Part shown: piece by piece, positions 14,041 through 36,858 of the stretch
Layout of the letters: each line of letters opens with the position of its first letter
Position numbering within the stretch: the stretch's first letter is position 1
From: Catajapyx aquilonaris
Lineage: Eukaryota
Direction of reading: 5' to 3'
Assembly: GCA_000934665.2 (NCBI GenBank)
Contig: JYFJ02003887.1
Span: 1-36,858 of the forward strand
Length of the DNA stretch: 36,858 nt
Made by a program: the position numbers and the translations under genes
The notes under the pieces: generated by a model
What the model was told of the DNA's origin: nothing
The model's input: only the letters and a program-made list of their open reading frames with translations
The model's database searches: none

Positions 14041-14284
14041 TTACTGCTGAATAAATTAACACGTTATCATGGCTTGTGGATGTCAAATATTGCGCACATT
14101 TTAAAATTAAATTAAATTAAACCATCTGAGAGTACAGTAATTAAAGTGCAATTTTTAAAAACTATAGCACTTATTTTGGCTGAGGCCTAAATAGACAACG
14201 CCATCACATTTTCATTGATTAAATAGCAGATCACATGACATTTACCATGAGTGTACATACCCTAACATTTTATTCATTTCATGC

Positions 14285-16063
14285 TTACCAGTCATGCCAG
14301 AACATCTTCTGTAGGACTGGTTGCCCCCCTTCTCCCATGGCCAGGCTCCTCCCAATGGCACCAGGTTGAGTCTGGCTCGATGTACAAACCTCCAGTCGAG
14401 TTGTAGTTGACCTGGCGGAGGTCCAGATGTTCTGGTGCGCATTGCTACGCAGGCGGAACTCTCCCTCGTTGGAGCCGTTCAGGAAAGCCAACATTTCTGC
14501 CTCACTGATGGCCTCCATGCTCAGGCGCCCCTCAACTGTAGAGCGAAGATCATCCTCAGCCAATTCCCTCACTCCAAATGGAGGGCGTGCACAACGTTGT
14601 TCGTAAAATTCCTGGTCCCAAGGCCTCTCTGAATATGCCTCAATGAAGGACTCCAACTTCTCCTTGGGAATATGGCACTTTTCACTCTCTTCATCCAGCA
14701 AAAGTCTAAAGGCTTTCCTGCGGTTGCGTCGGTAAAGCCGTTGAATGGCCCTTGGATGTCAATTGGGTTTTTGGTAGGGTCATGGTTGCCAGAAGATGGG
14801 GGGATGCGGGCAGTCTCCCTGGCGGTGGCATTTAACTGATCGAGCAGCTCTTCGAACAGGGCCCAAGCCTCTTCAGTCCTGCCCAAATTGCGTATTCGAG
14901 CCAGGCCGGGAGGTAATCATGTATCGGCGTCCGACCATCCCCTGACAGAAGCTCCTCCCCCATCGAGAGCTCCTCCATGACAGGGTCGCCCTCATGGTCA
15001 TGGTGATCAGAGGAATCATCATCGTCTAGGTCAGCATCACGAACATCATCATCATCATCATGCGAGTCAACACCACCATCATCCATGCACAAGACATCAC
15101 CACCAGCACCATCAGGAGGGTCAGCACCCCCTGCACCCACGTCCAAGACACCACCACCAGCAAAATCACCTAGGCCATCACCACAAGCACCAGCAGGAAG
15201 GTCAGTAGTATCAATGATCGCAGGTGTGAAAGCCGCCCTGTGGACTGGAGGAGGTAAAGAGCGACCACATCTGATAGGATGGGCACCACAGTATCAGGAA
15301 CATCAGCGATGACTTCACACTATGGCGTTGCACAGTCTGGTAAAGCAGGCACCGAGGTGGTGGTCGGGGTGAGCCTGAGCATTCTGGATCTACCCCGAAC
15401 AGGAGCATCACTGGCAGGACAGGCAGGCCCCCTGGTGGTCACGTCCGCCCCGTCTGCAACAGCAGGCCCCGAGGTGGTGGTATCCTCCGAGCTACCAGCC
15501 AACAGCGTAATGTCGTCTGCGAGGGCGAAGACATGGTGATCGCCCGCCTCACCTGGCTGGATCGCCCAGAGGACAGGGTCAATAGCCACATTGAAGAGTA
15601 TGCTGGACAGGGGGTCATCCTGCCGGATGCCACAGTCGGTTCAGATGGTGGAGGTAGGACCCTCAGCAGTCAGGATGGTGGTGGTGCTGCCCCGGTACAA
15701 ATCCATGGCGACTTCGGTGAGGGTGTCCCCCACTCCCGCCGCTCGCAGGGAAGCTTCGATTGCACCGTGAGGCACCGAAGTATAGGTTGCAGTGAGGTCC
15801 ATTCAACCAATGCACATGTCCTCCTTCCCGTCCAGCGCCCTGCCCATGGCCTCCTGGAGCCCAAAATTGTGCTCCAGGACACCATCGTAGGGGCGGAATC
15901 CTTTTTGGCCGCAGTGCAGGACCTGGTAGTTCTCCAGCCACGTCGACAGTCTGGCAGCGACGCAACCAGAGTATAGTTTGGCGATCGTCCGTAGGATGGA
16001 GATAGGCTGCCAGCTAGTTGACTGGGTCCACCGGGTCACCCTTCTTGTGGATGAGCACGGTGG
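14285..16063 (-). mobile_element. Utopia-like RLE non-LTR retrotransposon mosaic, block A (RT core piece, acidic linker, pre-RT piece, post-RT piece, DWRFVHRARL piece)
   Basis: Peptides TVLIHKKGDP, QKGFRPYDGVLEHNF, LADDITLLA, DGRTPIHDYLP, LYRRNRRKA, FLNGSNEGEF, DWRFVHRARLNLVPL. Frameshifted and not colinear. Confidence 0.85.
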
Positions 16064-16376
16064 CAGCCTGACTATCCCAAAGTACCTTTGAAACAGAACA
16101 GTTAATTATGCTCACGGCTATGGATAGCACTAAATTGCTGGTCTTACCTCTAGAGAGTACTTTAACCTCAAACAATATTGCTGGTTACGCTGGTCACTCA
16201 GCGATGTTATCACTCGGCAAAGACTTATTAGCTCGTCAAATCTGGCACATGTAACCGCACCTTTAAAACGATAACCAAAATTTTACTGCTGAACAAATTA
16301 ACAAGTTATCGTGGCTGGTAGATGTCAAATTTTGTGCACATTTTAAAATTAAATTAGATTAAACCATGTCAGAGTA
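16064..16376 (+). repeat. Local duplication of 13405-13498 fused to 13912-14132
   Basis: cagcctgactatcccaaag...cttacctctagagagt is followed directly by actttaacctcaa...attaaaccat. About 410 bp of the original is missing. Confidence 0.9.
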
Positions 16377-16489
16377 ATTCAAGTGCTATTTTTTGATCCA
16401 TACCAGGTATGTCATCCCCCGTGGTACCTGCGCTGGCTCTGCGGGTATGTAGTACATGCCAAGCAAATGATGGTCGTCTTCCCACACGT

Positions 16490-16580
16490 GGCTCGCAGGG
16501 AACCCGCCATCTTGACCAGCGGTTGCCAGATTTTCTCTACTCCTGAGCGTCACGTATAGACCGATCCATCTGGCAACAGG
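16490..16580. promoter_or_regulatory. Diverged copy of the ATP5MG start/promoter module
   Basis: cgccatcttgaccagc..gttgccagattttctctactcc..gatc..ctggcaaca aligns with cgccattttgaccagc..gttgccagatttgctctactcc..gatc..ctggcaaca at 13047-13126. On the minus strand ATGGCGGGTTCCCTGC corresponds to ATGGCGAGTTCCGTGC. Confidence 0.6.
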
Positions 16581-16930
16581 GGCCAGGAGAGGGCCACTTG
16601 CTGCTCGAGTGAGACATGTTGGAACGTGTTCGAAAGAAGAAGCCACAGTCTCTCAGTCTCTCGCGGGCATGTTTGACGAACACTAATTCAATCACATCAT
16701 TCCCTCTGTGCGAATTGGAACGGGTACATTTTAATGGCCCTATTTTAGAGCAGCTTTTATAGTGAAGCGCCTGTGTCGCATGTGGGTGACGTCAAGCAGG
16801 TAGCCTTGAAGCCGGCGGGTGATGCTGCGGGCCCCATTGCTTGGCTGCTCCTGGACGGGGAAGGTGCACACGGGACAAGTAGTAGTGGCACCCGGAGGAC
16901 ATCAGCGTCATGTGTACCCGCGTACAGGTA

Positions 16931-18004
16931 CGTTGAGAGGTGTAGTACCTGCACATACTTGGCATATCATCGTGTTCTGTACTTTTCATGCATACATGCA
17001 ATCACTGGGTGCTTGTCCAGCAGTCAAATTGGGGTGGCAGCTGTTTAATGTTGCAATGCTCCTAATCGCACATATTTTAACGCAGGTGAGACCCAAGCAC
17101 CTTCCCCATGGACCAGAGGCAACTACACTGTATCACCAGCAACAGCAGCGAATGCAATCGAACTGGACCAAAATGCTGTTGCGTCATGTGCGACTGTGGA
17201 TGAAGCCGTCCTGCTGTCGTGACTTTGGTATCGTGAGTCAAATATGACACCATTAACCCATTTCCCTTCCCGGTGGCATCTCAACCTTGGCGTGGTGGGG
17301 GGGCTTGCGTTCTCCCGTGACCCCGAAGGGCTATGCTGGCGGTAGCTTAGTCTACTGGCAGGGTCACCCTAGCCGGACAGGTCTTTGGGGTAGGAGACAG
17401 ACGAAGAGAGATGCCACCCTCATTTCCCACACATTCCTTCCTACCTGCCTTCATGTCCCACCTTTTCTATTTCCTATATAACGGCCAGTTGTGGCTCTAT
17501 TATACTAAACCCTATTCGCCTTGAAGGGAGGTAGGCCAGTGAAGGCCACCCACCAAGTCTGCTCTGACGTGGTTGCATTCCCTGTAGAGGTGGAAATTAG
17601 AATGTGGTTTACCAAGTATCATTGCTTTATTATATAATCATTATAGGCCTACATTACATATAATTACGACCTGAAAAATGTTTATGGCTCTCACATCAGA
17701 AAAATGGGGCCGCTTAATTTTCCTCTTAACTTCGGCCCCCATCTAATTCTTTCATAACTGCATTTAATCTCGCAGTACTCTTGTGCATTATTGCATGTTT
17801 TTGACCAGAAAGTAATTTTGGCCAAATAAATACCTGTACTGGTCTTAACAACAAATGGCTCAGTTGCCCCATTTTAGTAGACCATGAGCATGGATAATTA
17901 ATAATTATATTATGCTCTTTTGAGAAAAGGTGTTGGACGCAGAGTAAATTCCAATGAAAAGTTATATTGCAGGCGAAGACCATCTGACTTTGATCTGTTG
18001 ATAT
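16931..18004 (+). repeat. Non-coding spacer unit, copy 1
   Basis: Highly similar by eye to 20330-21649, 26294-27512 and 30780-32182. Lacks the first ~200 bp shared by the other copies. Confidence 0.92.
17272..17418 (+). mobile_element. RTE-clade LINE 5'-UTR structured element (Bov-A/Expander-like); also at 20886-21033, 31340-31487, partial at 26755-26820
   Basis: accttggcgtggtggggggg-cttgcg...gctatgc...ggcagggtcacccta-gccggacaggtc...cagacgaagag follows the conserved RTE 5' motif as I recall it. Closed by an 11-bp stem ggtggcatctc/gagatgccacc. Confidence 0.7.
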
Positions 18005-18023
18005 TAAGCTGATAAGAACAGAT
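18000..18023 (-). ncRNA. U2 snRNA fragment (about nt 38-61), Utopia target-site 3' flank; not a gene
   Basis: Minus strand ATCTGTTCTTATCAGCTTAATATC, immediately after the AATAAA ending the element 3' UTR. Confidence 0.88.
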
Positions 18024-19445
18024 TTATTATAAATATCATTAGGTATACATTGGATGAAGCAGAAATGTCATAAGTTATGTCATGGTTGAGGCAAGACGTA
18101 GTGAAGGCAGAGAGTTCATAACCTGAAATGGAAGGTAAAAAACTTTCCCACTGGCTTTATTTTGACACTGATCCTGCATTAATATTGGCAGTCGCCAGAC
18201 AAGTGATCGCAATAAATGTCCCGAGACCAACGTATGACATCACTGACGCAAAGACGTCTAGACGTCCGTAGATAGCTCCTGGAACAGAGCCGCCTCATCA
18301 GTCTGTCGTTCATTGGGTCCCAGGATCCAAGAGCTCCAACCACCACCTCTTCAACCATCACCCTCCGGTATCTGGAGCCGAGCAGCAGGGCCAACGGTGC
18401 GTACTTGTCGATTTTGAGTTGCCGAGCCGCTTGCAAGGATTCAGGTCTGTTGTCAAATGGGGTGGTTATATCCACGATGATCGCAGTATCTACTCCTTGG
18501 GTCAGAAGCAGGTCAGGGCGCAGTGAGCAGCCAGGGAAGACCTGTTGGTTACATTTCGTAACAGTGAACTTCGCCGAAGCCGCTCGCTTGACCCTCTCCA
18601 CTACTGAGTCGTGTCTCTTTTGGTATGCAACCGAGTGTCGGGCCATGCAATGATCAAGGACGACATGAGGCAACGTTTCCTTTGGTTCTGGGCAACGCCT
18701 GCAGGCCGTAGAGGACGTGGTGTCCCATGGTCGGCATCCATGTAGCGGGACTAACCTCAACCTCGCCCGGTGTGCAAACCTCCAATCCGCAAATCTAGTG
18801 TAGTGGCCAGTGGATAGGAAGTGCGAAGAGCTAGGGTGTTTGGCAACACACTCTAGCACCTTCCCTTGGTGGGGCAAGCCGTGCAGCCGCGCATCCCTTA
18901 CCCGCCACAAGGTGTCACGAAGCAGTCGTACCACTCCCTTCCTCTGTATTGGGTGGACGGTGGTGTCGTTCTTGGTCAGGGATGGGAGACTGTCGTTGAA
19001 TGACCAGGTGATACCAAGTCTTGTGGCCGCCTTCCTGCCCTCTGTCCATAGGTTCTGGCAGCGGTTGGTGTGGCGCCTGAATTCACTGTCATTGGTGCCG
19101 GAGAGGAACCGTTGCACATCTACCACACCAGCCACCCTCCGTAAGCGAGCGCTGACTGTTGAATTTAATTGGAGTTCAGCGAGCACCGCTACATCTACGT
19201 CAGGGGAGGCGAGGAGTTTGAAGCAACTGTCCAGTCGATATAAGTCAGATTCCTCCGCTGCCAGAGGGAACCCACAGGCACCCGCTTTCCTGTTGCCATT
19301 GAGGTAATCACTTGTAGCACGGGTAGGAAGGTACAACGTCTTCAAGATGTTGTGTTTGAAGGCCTTATCCAGCCTCTCCCATGCAAACTTCAGGAAGGTG
19401 CCCGTCCTCATTGGGAACACAAGGGCTGAGTAAACAAAGGTCTTG
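18024..19445 (-). mobile_element. Utopia-like element 3' third: post-RT region, CCHC knuckle, restriction-like endonuclease, stop and 3' UTR
   Basis: Open 413-aa frame (19420-18179): FADWRFAHRARL, CRRC..ETLPHV..HC, RHDSVV, RPDLLL..IIVDITTPFDN, KIDKY, VVGALGSW. Ends in AATAAA plus U2 flank. Confidence 0.92.
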
Positions 19446-19469
19446 ATCCGTTCAAGTGGGTGATATATG

Positions 19470-20329
19470 CTTCATGTGACCAAGAGATAGTAACATCTGA
19501 CACACCGTTTTTGAAACAGTCTAAGGTAGGACCTGCTACACATCCTCTTCATCACCTTGTTGTTCGCAGGGTCCCAAGAGCCCAAGGACCCTATGATGAT
19601 GGCCTCGACTGTCACCTGGCGATAACAGGTCTTTAGTTGTTCAGCCAGGTCAGCATACTTGTCCTCCAATTTGCTCGCCTCTGCAAATGCCGTCAGTCAG
19701 TTGTCAAACGGAATCGTGAAGTCTATAATGATGGCAGTGTCGTTGCTGACCAGCACCAGGTCAGGGCGTTGTGGGCACTCCCTCAGCACCTTCTGATTTT
19801 CCCCGAGGATGGAGTACTTCGTCTTCACCCCCTCCCCCACATGCCTCGCAACTGCATTATGTCTTTTTTGGTAAAATGCAGCATGACACATGCAGTGGTT
19901 CAGCACATGAGGGAGGGTTTCCACTGGTTCTGGGCATCTCCGGCACTTCTGGCGTTGGTCTCTCTCCCAGGGTCTAGCACCACCCAACAGGACCATATTC
20001 AGACGGGCCCGATGTACAAAGCACCAGTTTGCAAAAGTTGTGTATTGCCCATCTGACATAAGTGGCTCCAGGCTGCTGCTTTCCCCACACACTCCATGAC
20101 CTTCCCCTGGTTCGGCTTGTCCAGCAGTTGTTGATGGAGCTGCTTCTGGGTGGCTGCCACTGGACGCCCGCTTCCCTCTTAGCCGGGGGTTGCTCGCAGC
20201 CGTATGATCAGTCTCCGTAGGACTGCTCGTAGTCGTAGGTCCGGTACTCGTCATAGGGTTGCTCGTAGCCATAAGGTATGTCCCCATAGGACTGATCATA
20301 AGTCTGGCACTCGTCGCAGGGCCTCCTGA
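19470..20329 (-). mobile_element. Second Utopia-like RLE/CCHC fragment fused to a low-complexity N-terminal piece
   Basis: CRRCPEPVETLPHVLNHC, RPDLVLV..IIIDFTIPFDN, DKYADL, IIIGSLGSWDP. Clearly diverged from the 18-19 kb copy. Confidence 0.88.
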
Positions 20330-21649
20330 GACCTCCTCAATTGCTCCTACAGGTTGTGTAAAAATGTATTATTGTTGTCTTACTAATGAGCATACTCGCA
20401 CTGATCTTGCAATAATATTTGTAATTATCAATATGAATTCATCCTAACATGAAATATTTTATGTGAATGGCAACCTGCCATACAATGCTTCTGGCGAATT
20501 AATTTCCAAATACCATCATGTCGCCATACCGATCCGTTGAAATGTGTACCTGCACATATTTGGTAGAGACTGGCATATCATTGTGTTGTGTACTCATACA
20601 TGCATGCAATCACTGTATGCGTGTCCAGTCAAATTGGGGTGGCAGCTTAATTTAATATTGCAATGCCCCTAATCGCACATATTTTAACGCAGGTTATCCT
20701 GTGAGACCCAAGCATCTTCTCCATGGACCAGAGGCAACTACTGTATTGCCAGCAGCAGCGAATGCAATCAAACTGGACCAAAATGCTGTTGCATCATGTG
20801 CGACTGAGTGGAAGCCGTCCTGCTGTCGTGACTTTGGTATCGTGAGTCAAATATGACACCCTCTATTAACCCATTTCCCCCCCCAGGTGGCATCTCAACC
20901 TTGGCGTGGTGGGGGGGGCTTGCGTTCTCCCGTGACCCCGAAGAGTTATGCCGGCGGTAGCTTAGTCTACTGGCAGGGTCACCCTAGCCGGACCGGTCTT
21001 TGGGGTAGGAGACAGACGAAGAGAGATGCCACCCTCATTTCCCACATATTCCTTCCTACCTGCCTTCATGTCCCACCTTTTGTATTTTCTATATAACGGC
21101 CATTTGTGGCTCTATTATACTAAACCCTATTCGCCTTGAAGGGAGGTAGGCCAGTGAAGGCCACCCACCAAGTCTGCTCTGACGTGGTTGCATTCCCTGT
21201 AGAGGTGGAAATTAGAATGAGGTTTACCAAGTATCATTGCTTTATTATATAATCATTATAGGCCTACATTTCGTATGATTACGACCTGAAAAATGTATAT
21301 GGCTCTCACATCAGAAAAATGGGCCGATTAATTTTCCACGTAACTTCGGCCCCCATCTAATTCTTTCATAACTGCATTTAATCTCGCAGTACTCTTGTGC
21401 ATTATTGCATGTTTTTGACCAGAAAGTAATTTTGGCCAAATAAATACCTGTACTGGTCTTAACAACAAGTGGCTCAGTTGCCCCATTTTAGTAGACCATG
21501 AGTATGGATAATTAATAATCATATTATGATCTTTTGAGAAAAGGTGTTGGACGCAGAGTAAATTCCAATGAAAAGTTATATTGCAGGAGAAGACCATTGG
21601 ACTTTGATCTGTTGATATGAAATGCTTAACCCTAGACAAATGTCAATCC
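20330..21649 (+). repeat. Non-coding spacer unit, copy 2
   Basis: Starts acctcctcaattgctcctacagg, ends agacaaatgtcaatcc. Confidence 0.95.
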
Positions 21650-25626: not shown

Positions 25627-25647
25627 ATTAAGCTGATAAGAACAGAT
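25627..25647 (-). ncRNA. Second U2 snRNA target-site fragment
   Basis: Minus strand ATCTGTTCTTATCAGCTTAAT, preceded by AATAAATGATA. Confidence 0.85.
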
Positions 25648-26293
25648 TATCATTTATTGATAGCAAGGCGATCATATATTCCTTCCTCCCGCTGGTCAAG
25701 GGTTCGGCCAATGAGTTCATTCAGTATGAAATTGTGTTCAAGGACCCCGTCGTATGGTCGGAACCCGTTCTGTCCTTTGTGTAGAACCTGGTGCTTCTCC
25801 AACCAGGACGAGAGCCTTCTGGCAAGGCACCCAAGAACAGCATTGCAATGGTTTGCTGGATGGAGATAGGTCGCCAGTTGGCTGGATCGGCCTGGTCACC
25901 CTTCTTGTAAATTAGGACTGTTGTAGACGATCGCCAGGCGTCCGGGACACGGCGAAGCTGCAGGCAGATGTTAAAGATGGAGACGCCTCCTCGCCTCCAT
26001 GCCCCACGTCCTCCTCCGTCTCCTCTCTGGCTCCGGGGGGCCCGGCTGCAACAACTGCTCGGCGGCTTGTCCAGCAGTTGTTGATGGAGCTGCTTCTGGG
26101 TGGCTGCCACTGGACGCCCGCCACTGGACGCCCGCTTCCCTCTTAGCCGGGGGTTGCTCGCAGCCGTATGATCAGTCTCCGTAGGACTGCTCGTAGTCGT
26201 AGGTCCGGTACTCGTCATAGGGTTGCTCGTAGCCATAAGGTCTGTCCCCATAGGACTGATCATAAGTCTGGCACTCGTCGTAGGGCCTCCTGA
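25648..26293 (-). mobile_element. Utopia-like mosaic (low-complexity piece, post-RT piece, RT piece, about 35-nt 3' tail)
   Basis: IFNICLQLRRVPDAWRSSTTVLIYKKGDQADPANWRPIS. 26063-26293 duplicates 20113-20329. Confidence 0.82.
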
Positions 26294-27512
26294 GACCTCC
26301 TCAATTGCTCCTACAGGTTGTGTAAAAATGTATTATTGTTGTCTTACTAATGAGCATACTCGCACTGATCTTGCAATAATATTTGTAATTATCAATATGA
26401 ATTCATCCTAACATGAAATATTTTATGTGAATGGCAACCTGCCATACAATGCTTCTGGCTAATTAATGTCCTAATACCATCATGTCGCCATACCGATCCG
26501 TTGAAATGTGTACCTGCACATATTTGGTGGAGACTGGCATATCATTGTGTTCTGTACTCATACATGCATGCAATCACTGTGTGCGTGTCCAGTCAAATTG
26601 GGGTGGCAGCTTAATTTAATATTGCAATGCCCCTAATCGCACATATTTTAACGCAGGTTATCCTGTGAGACCCAAGCATCTTCTCCATGGACCAGAGGCA
26701 ACTACTGTATGGCCAGCAACAGCAGCGAATGCAATCGAACTGGACCAAAATGCTTACTGGCAGGGTCACCCTAGCCGGACAGGTCTTTGGGGTAGGAGAC
26801 AGACGAAGAGAGATGCCACCCTCATTTCCCACACATTCCTTCCTACCTGCCTTCATGTCCCACCTTTTGTATTTTCCATATAACGGCCAGTTGTGGCTCT
26901 ATTATACTAAACCCTATTCGCCTTGAAGGGAGGGAGGCCAGTGAAGGCCACCCACCAAGTCTGCTCTGACGTGGTTGCATTCCCTGTAGAGGTGGAAATT
27001 AGAATGTGGTTTACCAAGTATCATTGCTTTATTATATAATCATTATAGGCCTACATTACGTATAATTACGATCTGAAAATGTACATGGCTCTCACATCAG
27101 AAAAATGGGGCCGCTTAATTTTCCACGTAACTTGGGCCCCCATCTAATTCTTTCATAACTGCATTTAATCTCGCAGTACTCTTGTGCATTATTGCATGTT
27201 TTTGACCAGAAAGTAATTTTGGCCAAATAAATACCTGTACTGGTCTTAACAACAAATGGCTCAGTTGCCCCATTTGAGTAGACCATGAGTATGGATAATT
27301 AATTATTATATTATGATCTTAGGAGAAAAGGTGTTGGATGCAGAGTAAATTCCGATGAAAAGTTATATTGCCGGAGAAGATCATCGGACTTTGATCTGTT
27401 GATATGAAATGCTTAGCCCTAGACAAATGTCAATCCAGTGGTTATACTTGTCTGTTAAATACGATTTTTTTTTGTATGTGTGTGTGGGGTGGGGGGGGGA
27501 TATGTGGCGAGT
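26294..27512 (+). repeat. Non-coding spacer unit, copy 3 (internal deletion removes the 5' half of the RTE-like structure)
   Basis: ggaccaaaatgct is joined directly to tactggcagggtcacc at ~26755. Confidence 0.95.
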
Positions 27513-30500
27513 TAGGACCACGCCACCGTGGGAATGAACCCCTTTTGGGCCCCATGTGGGACGGACGTATACGCGGCGGAGAAGTCCATCCATCCGACAC
27601 GCAAGTCTGCCTTCTCCAACCGCTCCTCGTCCATCCTCTGTTGAAGGGTGAAGTTGTGTTCAGCCACCCCATCGAATGGCATAAAGCCCTTTTGGGCAGG
27701 GAGGAGAACCCCCAGTTTCTCGCACCAGCCAGACATCCTGGCCGCCAGGCAACCGGAGTACAATTTGTTGATGGTGCGGCAGATAGCAATAGGTCTCCAG
27801 TTGCCCGGATCAGTCAGGTCACCCTTCTTAGGGATGAGGACAGTCATAGAATGTCGCCACGCGTCTGGTATTCGACGATGGCAAAGACACAGGTTAAATA
27901 TGGCCGCCAACGCCACCCCATCGGGATCTAGCTTCAACCAATGCTGGTATGTCAGCTGGTCATCACCAGGGGCTGTGTTCTCCTCCTTCTTCAGTCGCCG
28001 CAATATCTCGTCTGGGGTGAACTCATTCATCTCCAGGGGGGGGTGCATTTGGGTCGAGTCATAGAACGTTTTATCCCAAGGGCGGGCAGCATAGGCTTCA
28101 ACAAAAAATTCCTCAAGCTGCTGGGCAGGGATCTGGCACCTCTCCCCCTCCCCTTCAACTATTAGTCTAACCGCCCTCCTGCGGTTCCGCCGGTAGAGGC
28201 CTTGGATGGCTTTGTGGTCCTCGACGTCGATCTGCTTCCTGGTTGGGGCGCCCTCACCAGACCGGGAAGGGATCCGGGCAGTTTCTCTGGCCGTAGACGT
28301 GAGTGCTTCCAGCTCTTTCTCAAATTGCATCCACGCCATCTCTGTCTGATCCAAATTATAGATGCGTTTTAAAGCTGGAAGGTGGTCGTGGATGGGCGTC
28401 CTTCCATCCGGGGACAGCCACTCCTCCCAAGGTGCGGATTGGGTAGCGGCCTCTCCGTGACCATCATCGTGACTGACATGGGGGTTGTCAACCCGTAGGG
28501 CGTCGTCGTTGCTTTGTCCAGAATCTGACTGACTGGCAGCTTCTGGCTCTTCCTCGGGTTGAGTATCCAAAAGAGCAAACCCCCTTATGTTCAATTACTC
28601 CGTCATGAGGGAGGAATCCCTTCTGGGCAAGGTGCAATACTTGGTACTTTTCCAGCCATCCCGCCAGACGAACCGCCAGACATCCGGAGAAAAGCTTGTT
28701 GATGGTCCTGCTAATGGCAATTGGCCACCAATTAGCAGGGTCACCGAGGTCGTCCTTTTTAGGAATAAGGACCGTGGTTGACCTCCTCCAACTGTCTGGA
28801 ATACGACGGTGCCTCAGGCATATATTGAAAATCGCCGTCAGCAAAACTCCCTCCGGATCCAGCTGCCTCCAGTGTTGGTATGCCAGCATATCTTCACCTG
28901 GGGCCGTACTCTCGGCTCCCCCCAGCTTTCCAACCACTTCCCCAGGGTTGAAATCTCTCATCTCGAGTGGGGGTCGAGTACTTCTTTGGGAATAAAAGTC
29001 AGGGTCCCAGGTTCGGGCTTCATATGCTGCTTCAAAAAAGGCTTCCAGTTGTGCCATCGGTATTTGGCACTTCTGCCCCTCGCCCTCCAGAATGAGCCGC
29101 ACCGCCCTCCGCCGGTTCCGTCTATAGAGGCTCTGGATGGCCCTGCAGTCTTCCACATCCATTGGCTTCTTCGTTCGTCCGGAGTTCCTGGTGGGTTCAG
29201 GAATATGGGCGGTCTCCCTGGCCGTGCCAGTCACTCTCTCCAGGAGCTCCTCAAATTTGGCCCACGCCTGCTCCGACTTCTCCATGTTATAAATTCTGGC
29301 CAGGGCGGGGAGATGTATATGGATAGGAGTGCGTCCATCAGGAGACAACCACTCCTCCCATGGTGGTGGCTCTCTCCCCTCGTCCGGCGCAGGGTCACCC
29401 TCTGATGGTGGACCATCTGGGACTTCATCCTGACTGGGAACACCCAGCTCGTCCCCTTCGTCATCCGGTCCGATGTGGTCATTCTCCTGGCCACCCATCT
29501 CTGCATCTGCATCGTCCTGCTGGTCATCGTTGATGATGTGGCCAGTAGCAGGCTCGTCATTGGTCTGGGTATTAAACAAGGCGAAGCCAGCCGGTGAAGG
29601 GGCATCGTATTTCACCGGACTGGCCATGACGTCGGCCGGCGGGATAGGAGGGAGCGGATAATCAGCTAAAATCGGAACAAGTGATGGATGTAAAAAGGAA
29701 GGAACCAGCACCGACCCTGCCCTGGCAAAACCGGGACTTACCAGGTCGACTGCTGGGGGGAGGAAAGGGGAGGGGGCAATAAAAGCAGGACCAGCCTGTG
29801 GGAATTGGGGTAACGGACCACATAGGTTAAAATGAGGACCAGCCTCATGGAGGGGGGGTGTGAGGTGGGGGACAGGACTAAAATCGGTTAAAAGCTCGCC
29901 TTCTTCTCCCACCAGGTCCGGCGTCGCCTGCTGGCCAATGGCCATGCCTAGTCATTTATGCTTCTTTCGCTTGGATGGGGGGCTAATAACTCCCACCTCA
30001 CCCTCCACTTCGCCCCCAGACTGCGGGGGTGGGGAACGCCTTCTCACGTCTGGCTTCCGGCGGGCGCATCTTCTCTCAGGAGCTCCGTTCTTTTCACGCA
30101 GCTGCTCCTCCACATGCCACCGAAGATGGTTCCGGATGCGTATCTTAGTGTGATGCATTTCTCCACATTCTGCGCAAGTGAATTTCCCCAAGGTAACATC
30201 CCCGGGTGCTATCTGTTCAGGCTTCTCAGGACATTGCTCGATGTGGTAGGATGGCCGCAGTCTCAATACCATCCCACACTACCTGCACAGTACCTCCTCG
30301 ATGGGATCCAGTTCATGACCCCTCCGCAGGTGTCGGGTTAGGGACTGCTTCACATACGTCCACACGTTTCCTTTGTAGACATGATTACATCCCTCAACGA
30401 TACACCGAACCTCCAGGGGCATGGGGAACCAGATGGTCAGCTTACCCTCCCGGAGCTCAGGTGGCCGCAGGGCAGTATTCACCTCAGCCTCTCCTGTCAG

Positions 30501-30779
30501 TGGGGTAGGCATCCCAGCACCACTTGGCTCAGCTGGTCCCTTTGGGGAGCACGCCAGCATGACCCCCCGCAGGTTCTCCAGAGACTCCCTTCGTGCCTGC
30601 TAGGCTGCCTCCGCCGCCCCCCTAGCTGCCTCTTAGCCGGGGCTTGCAGCCGTATGATCAGTCTCTGTAGGAGTGCTCGTAATCGTAGGTCCGGTACTCG
30701 TCATAGGGTTGCTCGTAGCCGTAAGGTCTGTCCCCATAGGACTGATCATAAGTCTGGCACTCGTCATAGGGCCTCCTGA
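27513..30779 (-). mobile_element. Two head-to-tail Utopia-like 5'-half fragments from different subfamilies (zinc fingers to RT domains 1-3)
   Basis: ORFs 28488-29945 and 27512-28594 each contain WLSPDGRTPIH, LYRRNRRRAVRL, TAPG.D, VLIPKK.D..DP.NW.PIAI, QKGF.P.DGV.EH. Confidence 0.9.
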
Positions 30780-32182
30780 GCCCTCCTCAATTGCTCCTAC
30801 AGGTTGTGTAAAAATGTATTATTGTTGTCTTACTGATGAGCATACTCGCACTGATCTTGCCATAATATTTGCAATTATCAATATGAATTCATCGTAACAT
30901 GAAATATTTTATGTGAATGGCAACCTGCCATACAATGCTTCTGGCGAATTAATGTCCAAATACCATCATGTCGCCATACCGATCCGTTGAAGTGCGTACC
31001 TGCACATATTTGGTGGAGACTGGCATATCATAGTATTCTGTACTCATACATGCATGCAATCACTGTGTGCGTGTCCAGTCAAATTGGGGTGGCAGCTTAA
31101 TTTAATATTGCAATGCCCCTAATCGCGCACATTTTAACGCAGGTTATCCTGTGAGACCAAAGCATCTTCTCCATGGACCAGAGGCAACTACTGTATGGCC
31201 AGCAACAGCAGCGAATGCAATCGAACTGGACCAAAATGCTGTTGCATTATGTGGGACTGCGTGGAAGCCGTCCTGCTGTCGTGACTTTGGTATCGTGAGT
31301 CAAATATGACACCCTCTCTTATTAACCCATTTCCCCCCCGGTGGCATCTCAACCTTGGCGTGGTGGGGGGGGCTTGCGTTCTCCGGTGACCCCGAAGAGC
31401 TATGCCGGCGGTAGCTTAGTCTACTGGCAGGGTCACCCTAGCCGGACAGGTCTTTGGGGTAGGAGACAGACGAAGAGAGATGCCACCCTCATTTCCCACG
31501 TATTCCTTCCTACCTGCCTTCATGTCCCACCTTTTCTATTTCCTATATAACGGCCAGTTGTGGCTCTATTATACTAAACCCTATTCGCCTTGAAGGGAGG
31601 TAGGCCAGTGAAGGCCACCCACCAAGTCTGCTCTGACGTGGTTGCATTCCCTGTAGAGGTGGAAATTAGAATGTGGTTTACCAAGTATCATTGCTTTATT
31701 ATATAATCATTATAGGCCTACATTACGTATAATTACGACCTGAAAAATGTATATGGCTCTTACATCAGGAAAATGGGACCGATTAATTTTCCACGTAACT
31801 TGGGCCCCCATCTAATTCTTTCATAACTGCATTTAATCTCGCAGTACTCTTGTGCATTATTGCATGTTTTTGACCAGAAAGTAATTTTGGCCAAATAAAT
31901 ACCTGTACTGGTCTTAACAGCAAATGGCTCAGTTGCCCCGTTTTAGTAGACCATGAGTATGGATAATTAATTATTATATTATGATCTTAGGAGAAAAGGT
32001 GTTGGACGCAGAGTAAATTCCGATGAAAAGTTATATTGCAGGAGCAGACCATTGGACTTTGATCTGTTGATATGAAATGCTTAGCCCTAGACAAATGTCA
32101 ATCCAGTGGTTATACTTGTCTGTTAAATACGATTTTTTTTTTAGTGTGTGTGTGGGGGGGAGGGGGGGGATATGTGGCGAGT
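30780..32182 (+). repeat. Non-coding spacer unit, copy 4
   Basis: Longest copy; same start as copies 2 and 3 and same end (gatatgtggcgag) as copy 3. Confidence 0.95.
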
Positions 32183-34325
32183 CAGGACCACGCCATCCGT
32201 GGGCATGAACCCCTTTTGGGCCGGATGTAGCACGGAGTAGGTCTCAATCCACTGTGCCAAGCGCGCCGCCCAGCACCTATAGAGTACAGCTTGTTTATTG
32301 TCCACCACATCCTCTCCATGGCCTCCCGACTCAGCCTCTCTCCCACCATTGTATGCAGGTCCTCCTCCGCCAGTTCAGCCACACCCTGGTCAGGGGAGGT
32401 CAGAAGTTTGAATGCTGTATCTACCATGAGGGCGTCGCAGCTGTTGGCGACTCTGGGCAGGCCACATCCTCCAGCCCCCAAATTATAGATGCGTTTTAAA
32501 GCTGGAAGGTGGTCGTGGATGGGCGTCCTTCCACTCCAACTGGAGACGGGTGGAGGCAGATCTGGCCACGGTCCAGATGTTCCGAAGTCTATTGCTTCGC
32601 CTTCGATACTCCCCCTCATTGTAACCGGACATGAACTGGGCCAAGTCCCCGTCCGATACGTCTCGGCCGAGGCGTCCCTGCACCGTCCGGGTCAAGTCCT
32701 CCATGGCCAGTTTCTGTACGTTGGGGTCAGGACAGGTGAGGAGTTTATAGGCGGAATCAACAACCATGACATCGCTGTCTTCGGCCGCTTCCCGCAGTCC
32801 AACACCACCATCTCCCCTGCCTCCATAGATGTACTCACAAGCAGCGCGCACCGGTAGGTTAAGAGTTCGCTTAATTAGCTGGCGGACCTGGGTGTCGGAA
32901 CTTTTTCCACTCTGATTTTTGGAGTTGGCCCATTCGCATTGGGAATGTCATTGCTGAATAGACGAAAGTTTTCACTGCGTCTATCCGTTGCCACGGGGCC
33001 AGGTTTGATCTCAGGATTTTCTCAGCCACTTTGATGAATTTGTCAGCAGTGGTGAAATCCGGTAATATGTTGAAGCCCACCGGTCTGCCCAGGAACTTTA
33101 TGACCTCGCCCCCTAGGCGAAACACGGTGGGCCTCACTCCCACAGGCGTCTTACCGGATAAGTGGATAGTAGCAGTTTTGTTGACATTGACCTGTATAGA
33201 GATACGCCTCGCCTCCTCCTCAACCAGCTCCAGGTTCTTCTGAAGCTCGTGGGGGCTGCTAGCCAGTAATGTAAAGTCGTCCGCGTAGGCCAGTACACTA
33301 TGACTTGGGGACCCACTTGGTTGGACCCTCCACAGTATCTGGTCCACCGCCAGGTTAAAAAGCAGACAGGAAAGGGGATCCCCCTGGCGGATACCATTCC
33401 GAATAGGCACAGGTGACGTGAATCCACTACTAGTGAGTATCCGGGTGGTTCCTCCCTCACACAGGTCTCCCACTATGTCCCGGTACACTGTCCCAACCCC
33501 CGCGGTTTCCAATGCGGCAGTGATCGCCCCATGTGGGACAGAGGTATACGCGGCGGAAAAATCCATCCACCCTATGCATATATCCTGTTAGTTCATCCGT
33601 GCCTCGTCCATTCTCTGCTGGAGAACAAAATTATGTCAGCCACGCCATCAAAGGGTAAAAACCCCTTTTGGGCTGGGTGTAGTACCTCCAGCTTCTCCAA
33701 CCAACTGGACAGCCTCCCAGCCAGGCAGCCAGAGTAGAGTTTGTTTATGATGCGGCATATAGCAATGGGTCTCCAGTTATCAGGATCCGCCCGGTCCCCC
33801 TTCTTGGGGATGAGGACCGTTATGGAGTGCCTACACGCATCAGGGATGCGACGGTGAGTCAGACACATTGAATATGGCCGCCAACGCCACTCTGTCTGGG
33901 TCCAATCTCAACCAATGATGGTACGTGAGCTGGTCATCTCCAGGCGCCGTGTTTTCCGCCTTCAGTCTTCTCAGGACCTCATCTGGGGTAAACTCGCCCA
34001 TCTCCAGAGGAGGCCGCGCTCGATTCGCAGTGTAGAAGAGGGGGTCCCAGGGGCGAGCAGCATAGGCATCCACAAAGAAGGCCTCCAGTTGCTGGGCAGG
34101 GATCTGACACCTCTCCCCCTCCCCTTCTGTTATCAGCCTAATCGCCCTCCTACGATTCCGCCGGTACAGGCCCTGGATGGCCTTGTGGTCCTCAATGTCA
34201 ATAGGCTTTTTCAATGAGGCGCCACTGCCATCAGGGTAAGAGGGAATCCGGGCAGTCTCCCGGGCGGAAGTTGTGAGCGCCTCCAACTCCGCCTCGAATT
34301 GCGTCCACGCCACCTCCGTCTGGCC
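32183..34325 (-). mobile_element. Utopia-like RT fragment (32534-34325, frameshifted) followed on the minus strand by three micro-fragments (32183-32533)
   Basis: WMDFSAAYTSVPH, NGIRQGDPLSCLLFNL, LAYADDFTLLA, KFLG, LAPWQRIDAVKTF, GGVGL. Confidence 0.92.
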
Positions 34326-36858
34326 CAAGTTATTCATCATCTCCTGTTGCCGATGATGGTCCTGCGACGGGTGGGCCGACCGGGGATCCAGGGGAACAAG
34401 TCAACAAAATCTCCCGGAAGTGCTCAAGAGATTCCCGCCTGGCCTGCTGGGCTGCCTCTGCTGCACCCCAAGCTGCTTCCGCTGCGTACTGCGCTGCCTC
34501 CTCAGTTTCTTTCGCCAGCTGCTGTGCCCTCAGTAGCTGCTCTTCCATTGTTGTTTGAGGTGAGGAGGAGGATGGTGATGGTGACGTCATGGAGACATTG
34601 TTTGAGGGGGAAGGAGTAGGTGGGGCACTAGACGCCTGCATCCTTCTCACATCCATATGGCTGCGGCTCGTATCCATATGGCTGCTGCTGTACCCATAGG
34701 ACTGCTGCTCGCATCCTTAGAACCACTGCTCGTATTCATATGACTGCTGTCCGTAACTGTGTCTCTCGTAGCCGTAGAGCCACTGCTCGTAGCCGTAGTT
34801 TCAATGCTCTTAGCCATACTTTTCTCGCTCGCAGCCATAGAGATGCTGCTCTTAGCCGTAGTCTCCACACTGCTGCTCGCATCCATATGGCTGATGCTCG
34901 TACCCACAGGACTGGCCGCAGTGTCACTCGCATCAGTATTCGTATTCGCAGGATTGCTCGTATCCCCAGTGCTGCCTGTAGCAATAGTGGCGGAACTCAT
35001 GTTCGTAGCCTTGCTGGTCGTAACCATCGTGGCCGTAGGCTTAGTCACCATACGACCTGTCGCAACCCTACCGACCTTCCTTAATCCGAATTTTAAAGGT
35101 CCCCCAGGCCACCCTCTGGTTGTATCTTCCACAGCACCTGGTCAATGGCCAGGTTGAAGAGCAGGCAGCTGAGGTGGTCTCCCTGCCTGATCCCATTGCT
35201 GACCGGTACAGGGGCTGTCGGTCCTTCCTCCGTCATGATCTTGGTGGTGCCCCCCCTACACAGGTCAGCCACCACCTCCACAAAAACTGCTCCGGTCCCG
35301 GCCGCCTCGACGGCCATCTTCAGTGCGCCATGCGGAACCGACGTATAGGCTGCGGTGAAATCCAACCATCCTATACACACCTCCGTCTTCTCCCTCTTCG
35401 TTCGTTCCATACAAGCCTGGAGGACGTGGTTGTGCTCGACCACTCCATCGTGCGGCATAAATCCCTTCTGTGATGGGTGGAGTACCTGGTAGGCCTCCAA
35501 CCACTTCGCTAGCCGGCCCGCCAGACAACCAGTGTACAGCTTCGTGATGGTCCTAGAGATTGCTATGGGCCTCCAGTTACCTGGGTCCTCCAGCTCTCCC
35601 TTCTTTGGAATGAGGATGGTCACGGAGTGGCGCCAGGGGACAGGGACCCTGCGATGAGTGAGGCAGACGTTGAACACAGCCGCAAGCAGCACTCCCTCCG
35701 GGTCCAACGTCCGCCAGTGCTGGTAGGTGATACAGTCGTCCCCTGGCGCCGTGTTCTCCGCCCCCCTCAGTCTGGCCCATACCTCCCCAGGCGAGAACTC
35801 CCCCATTGGAATCTCCGGCCTGGCCCTGGCTGTCTCTTCGAAGGTATGGTCCCACGGCTTGGCTGCGTATGCCTCCGTGAAGAACTCTTCCAGCTGACCG
35901 GCCGGAAGGGCGCATTTCCGGCCCTCCCCCTCCAGCAGGAGGCGAATGGCCCTCCTCCTGTTTCTTTTGTACAACCGCTGGATTGTCGTCGCGTCCTCCA
36001 CATCTACCGGCTTCCTTGTTGTCTTCCTCTCTCCGGATGGCTGAGGAATCCGGGCAGCCTCCCTAGCCGTTTCTGTAATTCTCTCCAGGAGGTGCTCGAA
36101 CTTCTGCCAAGCCTCCTCGGTCCTGCCCAGGCTAGCCACCCTGGCCAGTTCTGGGAGGTGGTCGTGGACTGGTGTGCGCCCCTCCACGGTGAGGAAGTCA
36201 TCGATATGGGAAGGAGGTACCTGTCCCGTGGCTGACAGGTTCGCCCCCCCACTATCATCCAAGATCAGCGGGTTCATCGCACATGTCCCAGCGTCGTCCT
36301 CTTCCTCCTCCTGACCAACGGCCATCTGTTCGCCCCCCGCGACCTGGTCGCTCTGTCGGCAGGAGTGGTCAAAATGGATGGCCCTCTCCACACCCACAAC
36401 ATGTCTCACATGCCTCACATGCAGTGGTTCAGCACATGAGGGAGGGTTTCCACTGGTTCTGGGCATCTCCGGCACTTCTGGCATTGGTCTCTCTCCCAGG
36501 GTCTAGCACCACCCAACAGGACCATATTCAGACGGGCCCGATGTACAAAGCGCCAGTTTGCAAAAGTTGTGTATTGCCCATCTGACATAAGTGGCTCCAG
36601 GCTGCTGCTTTCCCCACACACTCCATGACCTTCCCCTGGTTCGGCTTGTCCAGCAGTTGTTGATCGAGCTGCTTCTGGGTGGCTGCCACTGGACGCCCGC
36701 TTCCCTCTTAGCCGGGGGTTGCTCGCAGCCTTATGATCAGTCTCCGTAGGACTGCTCGTAGTCGTAGGTCCGGTACTCGTCATAGGGTTGCTCGTAGCCG
36801 TAAGGTCTGTCCCCATAGGACTGATCATAAGTCTGGCACTCGTCATAGGGCCTCCTGA
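34326..36858 (-). mobile_element. Utopia-like N-terminal low-complexity piece (34326-35100), another subfamily's pre-RT/RT piece (35100-36400), and a duplicate of 19880-20329 (36412-36858)
   Basis: ORF 35093-36484: EGRTPVHDHLP, LYKRNRRRAIRL, NGIRQGDHLSCLLFNL. The window ends at gggcctcctga, exactly where spacer copies 2-4 begin. Confidence 0.88.

Follow-up and report, generated by a model that had tools for sequence, protein, structure and literature searches.

A decayed head-to-tail pile-up of Utopia retrotransposons, stacked at a U2-derived target formerly present at the locus, probably accounts for the array of retrotransposon fragments that fills the last 22 kb of a 36,858-nt stretch of Catajapyx aquilonaris DNA (contig JYFJ02003887.1, hereafter the window). 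Ordinary repeated site-specific insertion would suffice for this 22-kb stretch, and the special memory locus proposed in a first-pass annotation is unnecessary.

Composition and orientation of the array

When four full-length homologues (P0002, P0007, P0005 and P0003) were used as tblastn queries, all 98 protein matches fell on the minus strand, and 0 on the plus strand, between 14257 and 36695. The matches merge into 19 blocks totalling 10,474 bp and can be grouped into ~17 collinear fragments of one RLE (restriction-like-endonuclease) non-LTR retrotransposon family between 14.3 and 36.86 kb, none of which is a full-length copy (Table 1). The longest collinear pieces run from 32104 to 28488 (5′UTR to RT, ~residue 580 of a 1219-aa reference) and from 35141 to 32528. 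Domain order along the minus strand, given here as residues of P0002, is scrambled: 989-1071, 333-681, 333-953, 858-910, 546-574, unit, 40-580, 330-613, unit, 494-583, 40-202, 47-153, 7-153, unit, 987-1201, 802-1218, unit, 512-700, 391-445, 890-950, 1025-1056. The pre-RT motif LY(R/K)RNRR occurs five times, always on the minus strand (14717-14737, 28178-28198, 29109-29129, 34149-34169 and 35954-35974). The first-pass annotation had described more than 15 RLE-type fragments, all minus, none full length and shuffled in domain order, along with at least five versions of this motif, and each of these descriptions holds.

Coding matches and the recurring unit described below make up 16,067 of 22,574 bp (71%), and the remaining ~29% is mostly linker and N-terminal coding sequence of low conservation, repeated among copies. 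All repeats within the array are direct, and no inverted repeats of 100 nt or more were found in the repeat comparison. The array is interrupted by ~0.9 kb of host-like DNA at 16052-16922 and by two small MITE-like hairpins, both repeats. Other coding transposon debris was not detected between 13 and 36.9 kb, where a Pfam search of 133 stop-to-stop ORFs of at least 70 aa (70 plus, 63 minus) returned matches at E≤0.001 for two, both on the minus strand and both RVT_1. The earlier remark that no gypsy, L2 or CR1-like coding debris was seen agrees with the profile search. Outside the array, a TOM70-like gene lies on the plus strand at 9452-10763; its best TOM70 matches are in insects, at ~50% identity.

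At least six RT lineages are represented, and the six RT fragments compared share 57-77% protein identity. Against 26 homologues of other organisms they nevertheless form one clade (support 100/99). With divergence of this size the array does not stem from one or two insertions later duplicated, the ordinary explanation that the first-pass annotation had offered as its own undoing. The alpha zinc-finger copies are 90-93% identical to one another in protein, and the beta copy is 52-54% identical to them. Collectively the fragments span residues 7-1218 of the 1219-aa homologue, with no single copy complete, and supply the layout of Utopia-type proteins: N-terminal zinc fingers (C2H2-type in ORFs 22106-23044 and 24750-25484), a central RT, and a C-terminal zinc finger with a PD-(D/E)XK endonuclease. 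Invariant residues of the CCHC finger (C257, C260, H269, C275) and of the endonuclease (P319, D320, D334, K353/K356) are present in alignment A3, and the CCHC+RLE region matches the R2 protein in PDB 9nl2_A (E 6.6e-07).

Table 1. Features of the array, listed down the minus strand.
Feature	Position	Strand	Content	Support and comparisons
Copy E	36416-36858	minus	Part of the unit that holds the ORF start, fused to RLE residues 989-1071; cut by window end	98.2% identical to 19887-20329 over 443 nt; alignment crosses copy B's deletion junction and ends at 36416 in CATGTG microhomology (E/F36.1 junction)
F36.1	35093-36415	minus	Linker, pre-RT and first half of RT, residues 333-681; 469-aa open frame truncated at both ends	tblastn E 4e-96; RVT_1 E 2.4e-14; LYKRNRR at 35954-35974
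F34.3	32528-35141	minus	Low-complexity N-terminal stretch followed by residues 333-953 (pre-RT, RT, thumb); zinc-finger region not detected	tblastn chain E 2e-133; RVT_1 E 1.4e-18; 34391-34818 71% identical to 22557-22991
Patchwork of short pieces	32105-32527	minus	~50-nt linker (GRTPIHDHLPALKRIYNL), residues 851-916, residues 546-585	Last ~130 nt (32105-32236) also upstream of unit C; 26755-27565 95.8% identical to 31422-32236
Element D	28488-32104	minus	Unit D (5′UTR, 30629-32104), ORF start, two to three zinc fingers, linker, RT to ~residue 580; 3′-truncated	Most complete copy; one reading frame from 30830 to past 29600 with 4 stops, continuing in 487-aa ORF 28488-29951; unit D 95.6% identical to unit B over 1482 nt
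F28.3	27437-28594	minus	Linker and RT residues 330-613, short QKGF piece, ~110-nt C-rich/ACAC/poly-A tail abutting unit C	tblastn E 3e-68; 76-77% protein identity to F34.3
Element C	25648-27436	minus	Unit C, ORF start, RT residues 494-583, ~70-nt tail ending ...CAATAAATGATAA	
U2 snRNA fragment, nt 39-61	25624-25647	minus	ATCTGTTCTTATCAGCTTAATCTC	Pattern search hit with 1 mismatch (chance expectation 0)
Z25.3	24873-25623	minus	~150 nt of 5′ sequence, then zinc-finger region, residues 40-202; alpha lineage, same as D	95% nt identity to 22061-22521 and 30040-30508
Z24.2	23440-24872	minus	N-terminal region, zinc fingers (47-153), linker; second lineage (beta)	Linker 23468-23821 ~75% identical to 21701-22011 and 29691-29999
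X_B	21650-23313	minus	Alpha N-terminal region, zinc fingers (7-153), part of linker; cut off by unit B	Hairpin repeat at 23055-23179; 21648-22645 94% identical to 29636-30632
Element B	19499-21649	minus	Unit B (5′UTR), ORF start, directly CCHC/RLE residues 987-1201; 3′-truncated deletion derivative	
G19.4	18024-19471	minus	430-aa open frame: thumb, linker, CCHC zinc finger, PD-(D/E)XK endonuclease (802-1218)	170-nt 3′UTR after ORF, ending ...TTTATAATAAA; tblastn E 3e-120
U2 snRNA fragment, nt 39-61	18000-18023	minus	ATCTGTTCTTATCAGCTTAATATC; between G19.4 3′ end and 5′ part of unit A	
Unit A	16923-17999	minus	5′UTR only, without first ~35 nt of the B/C/D form; cut at equivalent of 20527	91.6-96.2% identical to B, C and D
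Direct repeat R	16052-16393	none	Host-like, GT...AG intron-like signals; second copy at 13393-14156	341-bp direct repeat, its copies flanking the scrambled block; second copy with ~410-nt insertion at 13500-13911; 13912-14156 83% identical to 16158-16393
Block of five scrambled fragments	14157-16051	minus	Residues 512-700, acidic linker, 391-445, 890-950, 1025-1056, tail with AATAAA	

The recurring unit is the element's own 5′ end

A unit of 1.1-1.5 kb recurs in five copies that are 92-98% identical (16923-18007, 20113-21649, 26063-27436, 30629-32104 and 36642-36858, the last cut by the window end). Its recurrence had been recognized in the first-pass annotation, with the fifth copy listed as probable, and there it was taken for an independent non-coding repeat. 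That interpretation fails, as the unit in copy D reads in frame into zinc fingers and RT: the unit comprises the 5′UTR and the beginning of the ORF in the youngest lineage and in those derivatives of it that carry internal deletions. DNA contigs from four runs pass the 5′ end of the unit at 21649 into other sequence, indicating that the sequenced sample also contains the unit with another flank.

SIDE-like derivatives keep both the 5′ and the 3′ end of their parent and have a deletion junction common to several copies. Here B and E share an internal-deletion junction at 98% identity and both lack the 3′ end; C, the single copy of its type in the window, retains the unit start, a 270-nt RT remnant and a tail followed by a U2 piece. 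With the unit start on its 5′ side and the U2 piece beyond its 3′ end, element C may be a complete, internally deleted copy, SIDE-like in form.

U2 remnants and probable stacked insertion

At two junctions (18000-18023 and 25624-25647) an element 3′ end (...AATAAA) is followed by TCTGTTCTTATCAGCTTAAT(A/C)TC and then by the next element. An nhmmer profile of U2 nt 39-188, built from nine U2-flanked relatives and run on the whole window, recovered the first piece at E 8.6e-05 (profile positions 1-23) and the second at E 0.0015 (positions 1-22), with no further match below E 2. The 18000-18023 piece is identical to Rfam-confirmed U2 in locus L008 and others, and its junction is bridged by DNA contigs (X2 record 9, 17952-18601; X3 record 17, 17952-18344). 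An unambiguous C-terminus and 3′UTR precede the U2 piece at one of the two junctions only, that of G19.4. Neither an intact U2 nor nt 62-188 was found, with nothing at the Rfam gathering score in the window, nothing at E≤10 in 13000-36858 and a negative nhmmer search; rather than residing within a U2 gene or U2 array, the elements are accompanied in the window by nt 39-61 pieces only.

Related elements show the same association. The U2 motif is present at 13 of 66 metagenome loci that code for relatives of the C-terminal domain, and Rfam U2 scores above the gathering threshold in 12 of these 13. At 10 loci it lies on the strand of the ORF, after the ORF and an ...AATAAA...TTAA tail; when loci are required to extend to the C-terminus and 700 nt or more downstream of it, the count is 8 of 36. 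At L010 the 5′ junction consists of U2 nt 1-58 and then the element. The two C-terminal fragments of the window fall in a 28-row clade with the U2-flanked locus L001 (SH-aLRT 96), and the sister clade (97) holds nine U2-flanked loci, in a quick tree built without curated Utopia, NeSL, R2, R4 or HERO references, so that clade names rest on target site as a proxy. Domain layout, the junction at U2 nt 39 and these relatives together identify the family as Utopia on sequence grounds, the assignment suggested at first pass.

Because the remnants of U2 nt 39-61 sit exactly at element 3′ ends, the target was presumably once here, and since the target dictates orientation, stacking in one direction is to be expected with no dedicated capture system. 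The contrary argument, that a target-specific element could accumulate only in a dedicated memory locus, is undercut by the same two remnants. In the proposed sequence of events, Utopia (NeSL-clade, RLE) would nick the U2 snRNA gene, and the element's 3′ end would become linked to U2 at nt 39. Each insertion would be copied by target-primed reverse transcription, its orientation fixed by the target, and a 23-bp duplication of U2 nt 39-61 left beside it would cause later insertions to land adjacent and in the same direction. Several co-existing lineages and internally deleted non-autonomous derivatives may have used the site, with the youngest lineage and its derivatives contributing their 5′UTR and ORF start as the recurring unit. 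Truncation at 5′ ends, template switching or internal deletion, loss of upstream DNA upon insertion, and unequal recombination among near-identical units could have produced the scrambled order and the missing 3′ ends. We infer the original U2 target at the locus, the order of events and the process behind each breakpoint, the target from the two 23-nt remnants only, as U2 from nt 62 onward is absent from the window.

Several observations sit less comfortably with a pile-up. The U2 piece is kept at 2 of ~17 junctions, a clear 3′ end is seen in G19.4 only, and most breakpoints need secondary deletion or recombination. At 16923, where the main array stops on its low-coordinate side, a cut 5′UTR adjoins host-like DNA in place of a 3′ end with U2, and young units are interleaved with older lineages, which misfits a simple oldest-to-youngest stack. 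The 23-nt spacer also differs from the arthropod Utopia families, for which PMC4640811 reports no target-site duplication (TSD), and the 341-bp host-like direct repeat around 14157-16051 is unexplained by ordinary insertion.

The array might instead be, or have been co-opted as, a uni-strand piRNA source, in which a plus-strand precursor antisense to all Utopia fragments, for example read-through from the TOM70-like gene ending at ~10.8 kb, could contribute to silencing every lineage resident in the genome. Clusters of the uni-strand type, flamenco among them, have a precursor transcript and piRNAs as their defining features and carry antisense fragments of many unrelated transposon families trapped by chance. 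The array resembles them in its long one-orientation run of retrotransposon fragments (98 of 98 matches) next to a host gene, here upstream and on the plus strand, and its six or more lineages also speak for such a role. However, it holds one target-specific family, with target remnants at junctions, plus two small hairpin repeats, and the 133 ORFs yield RVT_1 of one clade only; in the literature searched, Utopia and piRNA clusters were not found together. As target-directed insertion fully accounts for the architecture, orientation adds no weight, and we regard a piRNA role as unlikely, although it is compatible with an insertional origin and may hold on top of it.

It is improbable that the array arose in a few large events, whether as chimeric cDNA from RT template jumping between lineage RNAs or by replication-based template switching with segmental duplication. 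In favour of such events are the short pieces (50-270 nt) that abut one another in sense at 32105-32527, 14285-14760 and 25716-25984, the microhomology between E and F36.1 and the ~130 nt upstream of the unit common to C and D, and the R2 RT is documented to jump templates in vivo (PMC3414825). Yet a U2 spacer follows an element 3′ end twice, which indicates three or more independent target-primed events; divergence is 2-8% among unit copies and 23-43% in protein among lineages, and a 22-kb cDNA is implausible.

Mis-chaining of reads from dispersed Utopia copies into one array is very unlikely. The region is repeat-rich and includes two single N (23560 and 24818), DNA contigs contain alternative joints (for example 25750 to 19500, with 19 letters between, and 29554 to 34794), and the runs contain only 0.65-0.71 of sampled words; against this, three DNA runs cover 30 of 30 bins across 16000-35999, the 18000-18023 junction is bridged by contigs from runs that may be the assembly's own source, and uniform strand with clean U2 junctions is unexpected from mis-chaining. 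Finally, a host scaffold that acquires subfamily fragments as memory is barely credible: the unit does alternate with differing cargo five times, but it belongs to the element itself, as 5′UTR and beginning of the ORF, and in D shares one frame with the zinc fingers and RT; unit A comes immediately after a U2 target remnant, the position expected of an inserted element; DNA contigs leading past 21649 give the unit a different flank; and cargo comes in runs of 2-4 fragments with no unit between.

Relation to known site-specific elements

Stacked site-specific insertion has a close parallel in R1 of Drosophila 28S genes, which forms tandem arrays separated by a 14-bp target-site duplication with SIDEs interspersed, according to Eickbush & Eickbush 2012 (PMC3414825), where R2 insertion is also associated with deletion of upstream DNA. 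Head-to-tail site-specific copies, target-duplication spacers and interspersed, internally deleted and apparently non-autonomous derivatives are common to both. R1, however, relies on an endonuclease of AP type and duplicates 14 bp of rDNA, whereas the window has an RLE and a 23-nt U2 piece; and R1 SIDEs consist of a ribozyme and 3′UTR, whereas the derivatives here keep a 1.3-kb 5′UTR and coding remnants.

Utopia itself, as described by Kojima & Jurka 2015 (PMC4640811), has downstream U2 starting at nt 39 (for example ...TAATAAA joined to TCTGTTCTTTTCAGCTTAATATCTGA, S1 Fig) and 20-bp TSDs in reptile families. Some families also insert outside U2 genes. Tandem insertions are described there for Nasonia, the 3′ flanks in N. 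vitripennis being 74 U2, 20 Utopia and 0 other, and several families share one U2 array in Phytophthora. The window departs from these published cases in retaining two 23-nt pieces (nt 39-61) and no U2 gene, in its 17 fragments from at least six RT lineages within 22 kb, mostly without 3′ ends, in the long (~1.3 kb) 5′UTR of its youngest lineage, and in a 23-nt spacer where arthropod families have no TSD and reptile families have 20 bp. It agrees with them in a single ORF bearing N-terminal zinc fingers, RT, and CCHC and PD-(D/E)XK domains, in an ...AATAAA 3′ end at U2 nt 39, and in the presence of several lineages at one target, with tandem Utopia-Utopia junctions and disrupted targets outnumbering intact ones.

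Fragments of one family on one strand

Four full-length homologues (1172-1335 aa) used as tblastn queries gave 98 matches running from position 14257 to the end of the window, none of them on the plus strand, and these merge into 19 blocks (10,474 bp) that group into 17 collinear fragments. None of the fragments is complete and their order is scrambled: numbered on a 1219-aa full-length reference homologue, the residues covered down the minus strand are 989-1071, 333-681, 333-953, 858-910 and 546-574; after unit D of a recurring repeat, 40-580 and 330-613; after unit C, 494-583, 40-202, 47-153 and 7-153; after unit B, 987-1201 and 802-1218; and after unit A, 512-700, 391-445, 890-950 and 1025-1056. 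Self-comparison of the array yields direct repeats only. Among 133 ORFs of at least 70 aa on both strands, Pfam matched two, both to RVT_1 on the minus strand, and no coding debris of other transposon classes was seen. The first-pass annotation had described just such a uni-strand, fragmentary and scrambled array, with five LY(R/K)RNRR sites and free of coding debris from other elements, and each part of that description holds.

Taken together, the fragments display an RLE-type layout with N-terminal C2H2 fingers, an RT, and a C-terminal CCHC finger and PD-(D/E)XK motif. The latter two are invariant across a 16-sequence alignment, and this C-terminal region aligns with its counterpart in R2 proteins of known structure (9nl2_A, E 6.6e-07). 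A complete C-terminus is retained in one fragment only (G19.4, residues 802-1218), where it is followed by a 170-nt 3′UTR ending ...TTTATAATAAA, then by a piece of U2 snRNA, TCTGTTCTTATCAGCTTAATATC, and then by unit A. A second copy of this U2 23/24-mer, with one mismatch, follows ...CAATAAATGATAA; 0 are expected by chance. Utopia elements are defined by a 3′ end joined to U2 at nt 39 (Kojima & Jurka, PMC4640811, in part), and the junctions published there join ...TAATAAA to TCTGTTCTTTTCAGCTTAATATCTGA in sea urchin and ...AATAAAAAA to TCTGTTCTTATCAGCTTAATATCTGATACG in tick. When nine U2-flanked loci were used to construct a profile of U2 nt 39-188, it matched the window at its two junctions only (E 8.6e-05 over positions 1-23 and 0.0015 over positions 1-22). 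Neither Rfam nor this profile found a U2 gene, or U2 sequence past nt 61, anywhere in the window, and searches for further degenerate U2 pieces at other junctions (a 14-mer with up to 3 mismatches, nhmmer and tiled local alignment) returned none. The 3′UTR of G19.4 and the tail preceding the second U2 piece each occur once in the window.

A metagenome scan with an alignment of the C-terminal domain as query found 66 loci encoding relatives, where a single-protein query gave none. A U2 motif is present in 13 of the 66, with Rfam U2 above gathering score in 12 of these. At 10 loci the motif lies 3′ of the ORF, on the same strand and after an AATAAA-bearing tail, an arrangement found in 8 of 36 when the count is restricted to loci extending to the C-terminus and carrying 700 nt or more beyond it. 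Those relatives have U2 sequence identical to the 23-mer of the window. Locus L010 preserves the opposite side, with U2 nt 1-58 immediately upstream of the element. A quick tree built on 57 C-terminal sequences places both fragments of the window in a clade that includes a U2-flanked locus (SH-aLRT 96), and its sister clade (SH-aLRT 97) holds nine more U2-flanked loci. The layout, the junctions at U2 nt 39 and these U2-flanked relatives show that the earlier designation of the family as Utopia-like was correct.

Two of the metagenome loci display the genomic setting of relatives. Downstream of a related Utopia, L013 (1800-3858) carries U2 (from nt 39), U1, tRNA and U4 genes on one strand, and this snRNA gene cluster is the home of that element. 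In L052, two Utopia 3′ ends (738-917 and 2493-2675), 1.8 kb apart on one strand, are each followed by U2 from nt 39, so that disrupted U2 genes line up there in a small array of one orientation.

Pairs of fragments from the window mostly share 44-77% protein identity over overlapping columns. Near-copies form two sets, namely B and E (93% protein, 98% nucleotide) and three copies of one zinc-finger region (90-93% protein). Six RT-region fragments constitute one clade relative to 26 homologues from other organisms (ultrafast bootstrap 100, SH-aLRT 99), with end branches of 0.14-0.57. From these identities and branches it follows that one family is represented at the locus by six or more lineages, which diversified within the host's lineage; this rules out the case named beforehand as damaging to the first-pass reading, in which one or two insertions were later duplicated.

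The window is eukaryotic, with pieces of host genes in its first 13 kb; the best matches of the TOM70-like exons are in insects, at ~50% identity.

Coordinates of host exons, repeats, U2 pieces and other features in the window
Feature	Position	Strand	Remarks
TBC1D23 C-terminal domain exon	3157-3618	minus	Pfam E 1e-07
GC-rich stretch	8.0-9.0 kb		both strands carry long open frames
Two large TOM70-like TPR exons	9452-10763	plus
Direct-repeat copy R′	13393-14156
Insertion in R′	13500-13911		~410 nt, missing from R
Hairpin inside that insertion	13790-13849		weak mir-548-like match, E 3.8
Block between R′ and R	14157-16051		1.9 kb
Direct-repeat copy R	16052-16393
Candidate host promoter and first exon, by appearance	16500-16830	minus	TGACGTCA motif, ~25 nt on TATAAAAG, then ATG-containing sequence; directed away from array
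Unit A	16923-18007
First U2 piece	18000-18023
Complete C-terminus (in G19.4)	19471-18194	minus
Unit B	20113-21649
180-nt segment of unit	20788-20967		in A, B and D, missing from C
Palindromic hairpin	23055-23179		sub-threshold Rfam matches to plant miRNA families: MIR4372, 45 bits (gathering 100); MIR7502, 46 (gathering 71)
Second U2 piece	25647-25624
Unit C	26063-27436
Unit D	30629-32104
Unit E	36642-36858		cut by window end
LY(R/K)RNRR motifs (n=5)	14717, 28178, 29109, 34149, 35954	minus

The recurring unit and its derivatives

Copies of the unit are 92-98% identical. In copy D, one reading frame with four stops connects the unit's low-coordinate end ('...MISPMGTDLTATSNPMTS...'), by way of zinc fingers, with a 487-aa frame reaching the RT. 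Because this frame is continuous into the zinc fingers and RT, the unit is the ~1.3-kb 5′UTR and ORF start of copy D's lineage, not a host scaffold. The first-pass annotation had instead proposed a repeated non-coding unit and a dedicated repeat-and-cargo system; the former is not borne out, since the sequence is the element's own 5′UTR and ORF start, in frame in D, and the same identity contradicts the latter.

B and E have the ORF start joined directly to the CCHC/RLE region, through an identical junction in both. In C its partner is an RT remnant of 270 nt, after which come a short tail and then the second U2 piece. B, C and E resemble non-autonomous derivatives that lost internal sequence, akin to the SIDEs of R2 and R1 (PMC3414825); that they are non-autonomous and were mobilised is our inference. 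DNA contigs from four sequencing runs track the unit to 21649 and then diverge into other sequence, so in the sequenced sample the 5′ boundary of the unit also exists beside a different flank.

The 180-nt segment missing from C represents an indel within the 5′UTR or a small insertion. A DNA contig from run X2 matches unit D to 31479 and continues for 118 nt, starting on the plus strand with CCTTTTGGCTAAGATCAAAGTGT..., a stretch similar to the 5′ portion of arthropod-type U2 (nt ~13-35). Part of the unit therefore adjoins a U2 5′ region, in opposite orientation, at some other place in the sample.

Several other identities for the unit were rejected. It is not a repeat of U2 or other snRNA, rRNA or tRNA genes, as no Rfam family reaches its gathering score in the window, searches at E<=10 of 13000-36858 and 17960-18110 gave only weak miRNA- or snoRNA-like chance matches, and ARAGORN found no tRNA. 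A 5′ ribozyme was also discarded, with no Rfam ribozyme family at E<=10. Nor do shuffles lend significance to the first ~35-75 nt as a diverged U2 5′ half: the score observed in local alignment of the unit start was reached in 95-105 of 500 shuffles for U2-bearing loci, and in 95-251 of 1000 for U2 nt 1-58 from L010. The 10-mer AGATCAAAGT is common to the unit start and U2, and no significance is claimed for it.

Probable assembly at a decayed target

Most likely, Utopia elements and derivatives of them with deletions piled up here in one orientation, at a U2-derived target that has since decayed. Target-primed reverse transcription sets the orientation of an element relative to the target and, with duplication of U2 nt 39-61, each insertion would leave a half-site on both sides. 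A later adjacent insertion would then yield two elements separated by a 23-nt spacer, which is the arrangement seen after G19.4. The scrambled order and lost 3′ ends may reflect 5′ truncation among further processes, all of which have precedents. Upstream DNA may also be deleted when an element inserts, as reported for R2 (PMC3414825, in part) and proposed for Phytophthora Utopia (PMC4640811, in part); this could contribute to both, and so could template jumping, as several pieces are only 50-270 nt long and in sense orientation, and the joint between E and fragment F36.1 (35093-36415, minus strand, residues 333-681) sits in CATGTG microhomology. Unequal recombination between units might likewise be involved, C and D sharing ~130 nt upstream of the unit.

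Some features count against this origin or are left unexplained by it. U2 sequence is kept at two array junctions only, the low end of the array (16923) is a cut 5′UTR beside host-like DNA, and young units are interleaved with old lineages. In addition, a block of five scrambled Utopia pieces lies between the copies of a 341-bp direct repeat (R and R′), which is host-like DNA bearing GT...AG intron-like signals and would be either a target duplication of unusual length or a duplication that arose locally. Contigs from DNA runs also give alternative joints, all with short sides of 20-46 nt: from 25750 to 19500 with 19 letters between, from 24908 to 25623 (skipping 714) and from 29554 to 34794 (skipping 5239). 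These joints suggest that the sample also contains the pieces in other arrangements, and may represent paralogous arrays, alleles or repeat artefacts.

Two small repeats accompany the Utopia pieces. The insertion in R′ is probably another small inverted-repeat element. Within the array, a near-perfect palindromic, MITE-like hairpin is probably a high-copy repeat, because the bin containing it (22670-23336) has a summed contig depth of ~4300-5300 in three DNA runs, compared with tens elsewhere, a depth not used as copy number.

Possible antisense roles, persistence and known arrays

A secondary role as a putative antisense piRNA source, for example by read-through from the plus-strand TOM70-like gene, is conceivable and in our judgment unlikely. 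Uniform orientation no longer favours a cluster because the target explains it, and none of the papers searched links Utopia with piRNA clusters. Contigs of run X5 (type unspecified) fall in 7 of 30 bins, from which nothing is concluded about expression. Even more doubtful is a self-renewing landing pad, wherein each Utopia insertion would regenerate a 23-nt half-site (U2 nt 39-61) sufficient for the next. Such a stack might also be a self-building, family-specific uni-strand piRNA source, since all of it would lie antisense to any read-through from the plus-strand gene alongside. With such a landing pad, at least six lineages and non-autonomous derivatives would survive in a 'safe harbour' at a distance from functional U2 genes, which would answer how a family targeting a low-copy gene survives. 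A cluster that trapped elements by chance is disfavoured by the lack of other TE families.

The pile-up at a decayed target implies that target-site specificity alone can build a multi-lineage 'archive' of a single retrotransposon family in strict orientation, and cautions against taking uniform orientation as a sign of a piRNA cluster. Kojima & Jurka (PMC4640811, in part) raise the question of how multiple Utopia lineages are maintained when their target is low-copy. The locus offers a compact natural example, with at least six lineages and deletion derivatives on a now-dead target of which only 23-nt U2 remnants are left. Were these remnants still usable targets, decayed arrays could serve as refuges. 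What may interest specialists is how many lineages reside here together, the long 5′UTR carried by the SIDE-like derivatives, and the possible continued targeting of the remnants.

Comparable arrangements are described in parts of two earlier reports. Among Nasonia Utopia copies, which occur in tandem, 20 of 94 3′ flanks are another Utopia, and in Phytophthora several Utopia families share one U2 array (PMC4640811). Tandem copies of R1 are separated by a 14-bp duplication and have SIDEs interspersed (PMC3414825). The array is like R1 in its head-to-tail copies, apparently split by a target-site duplication and with SIDE-like derivatives among them, the spacer here being 23 nt of U2.
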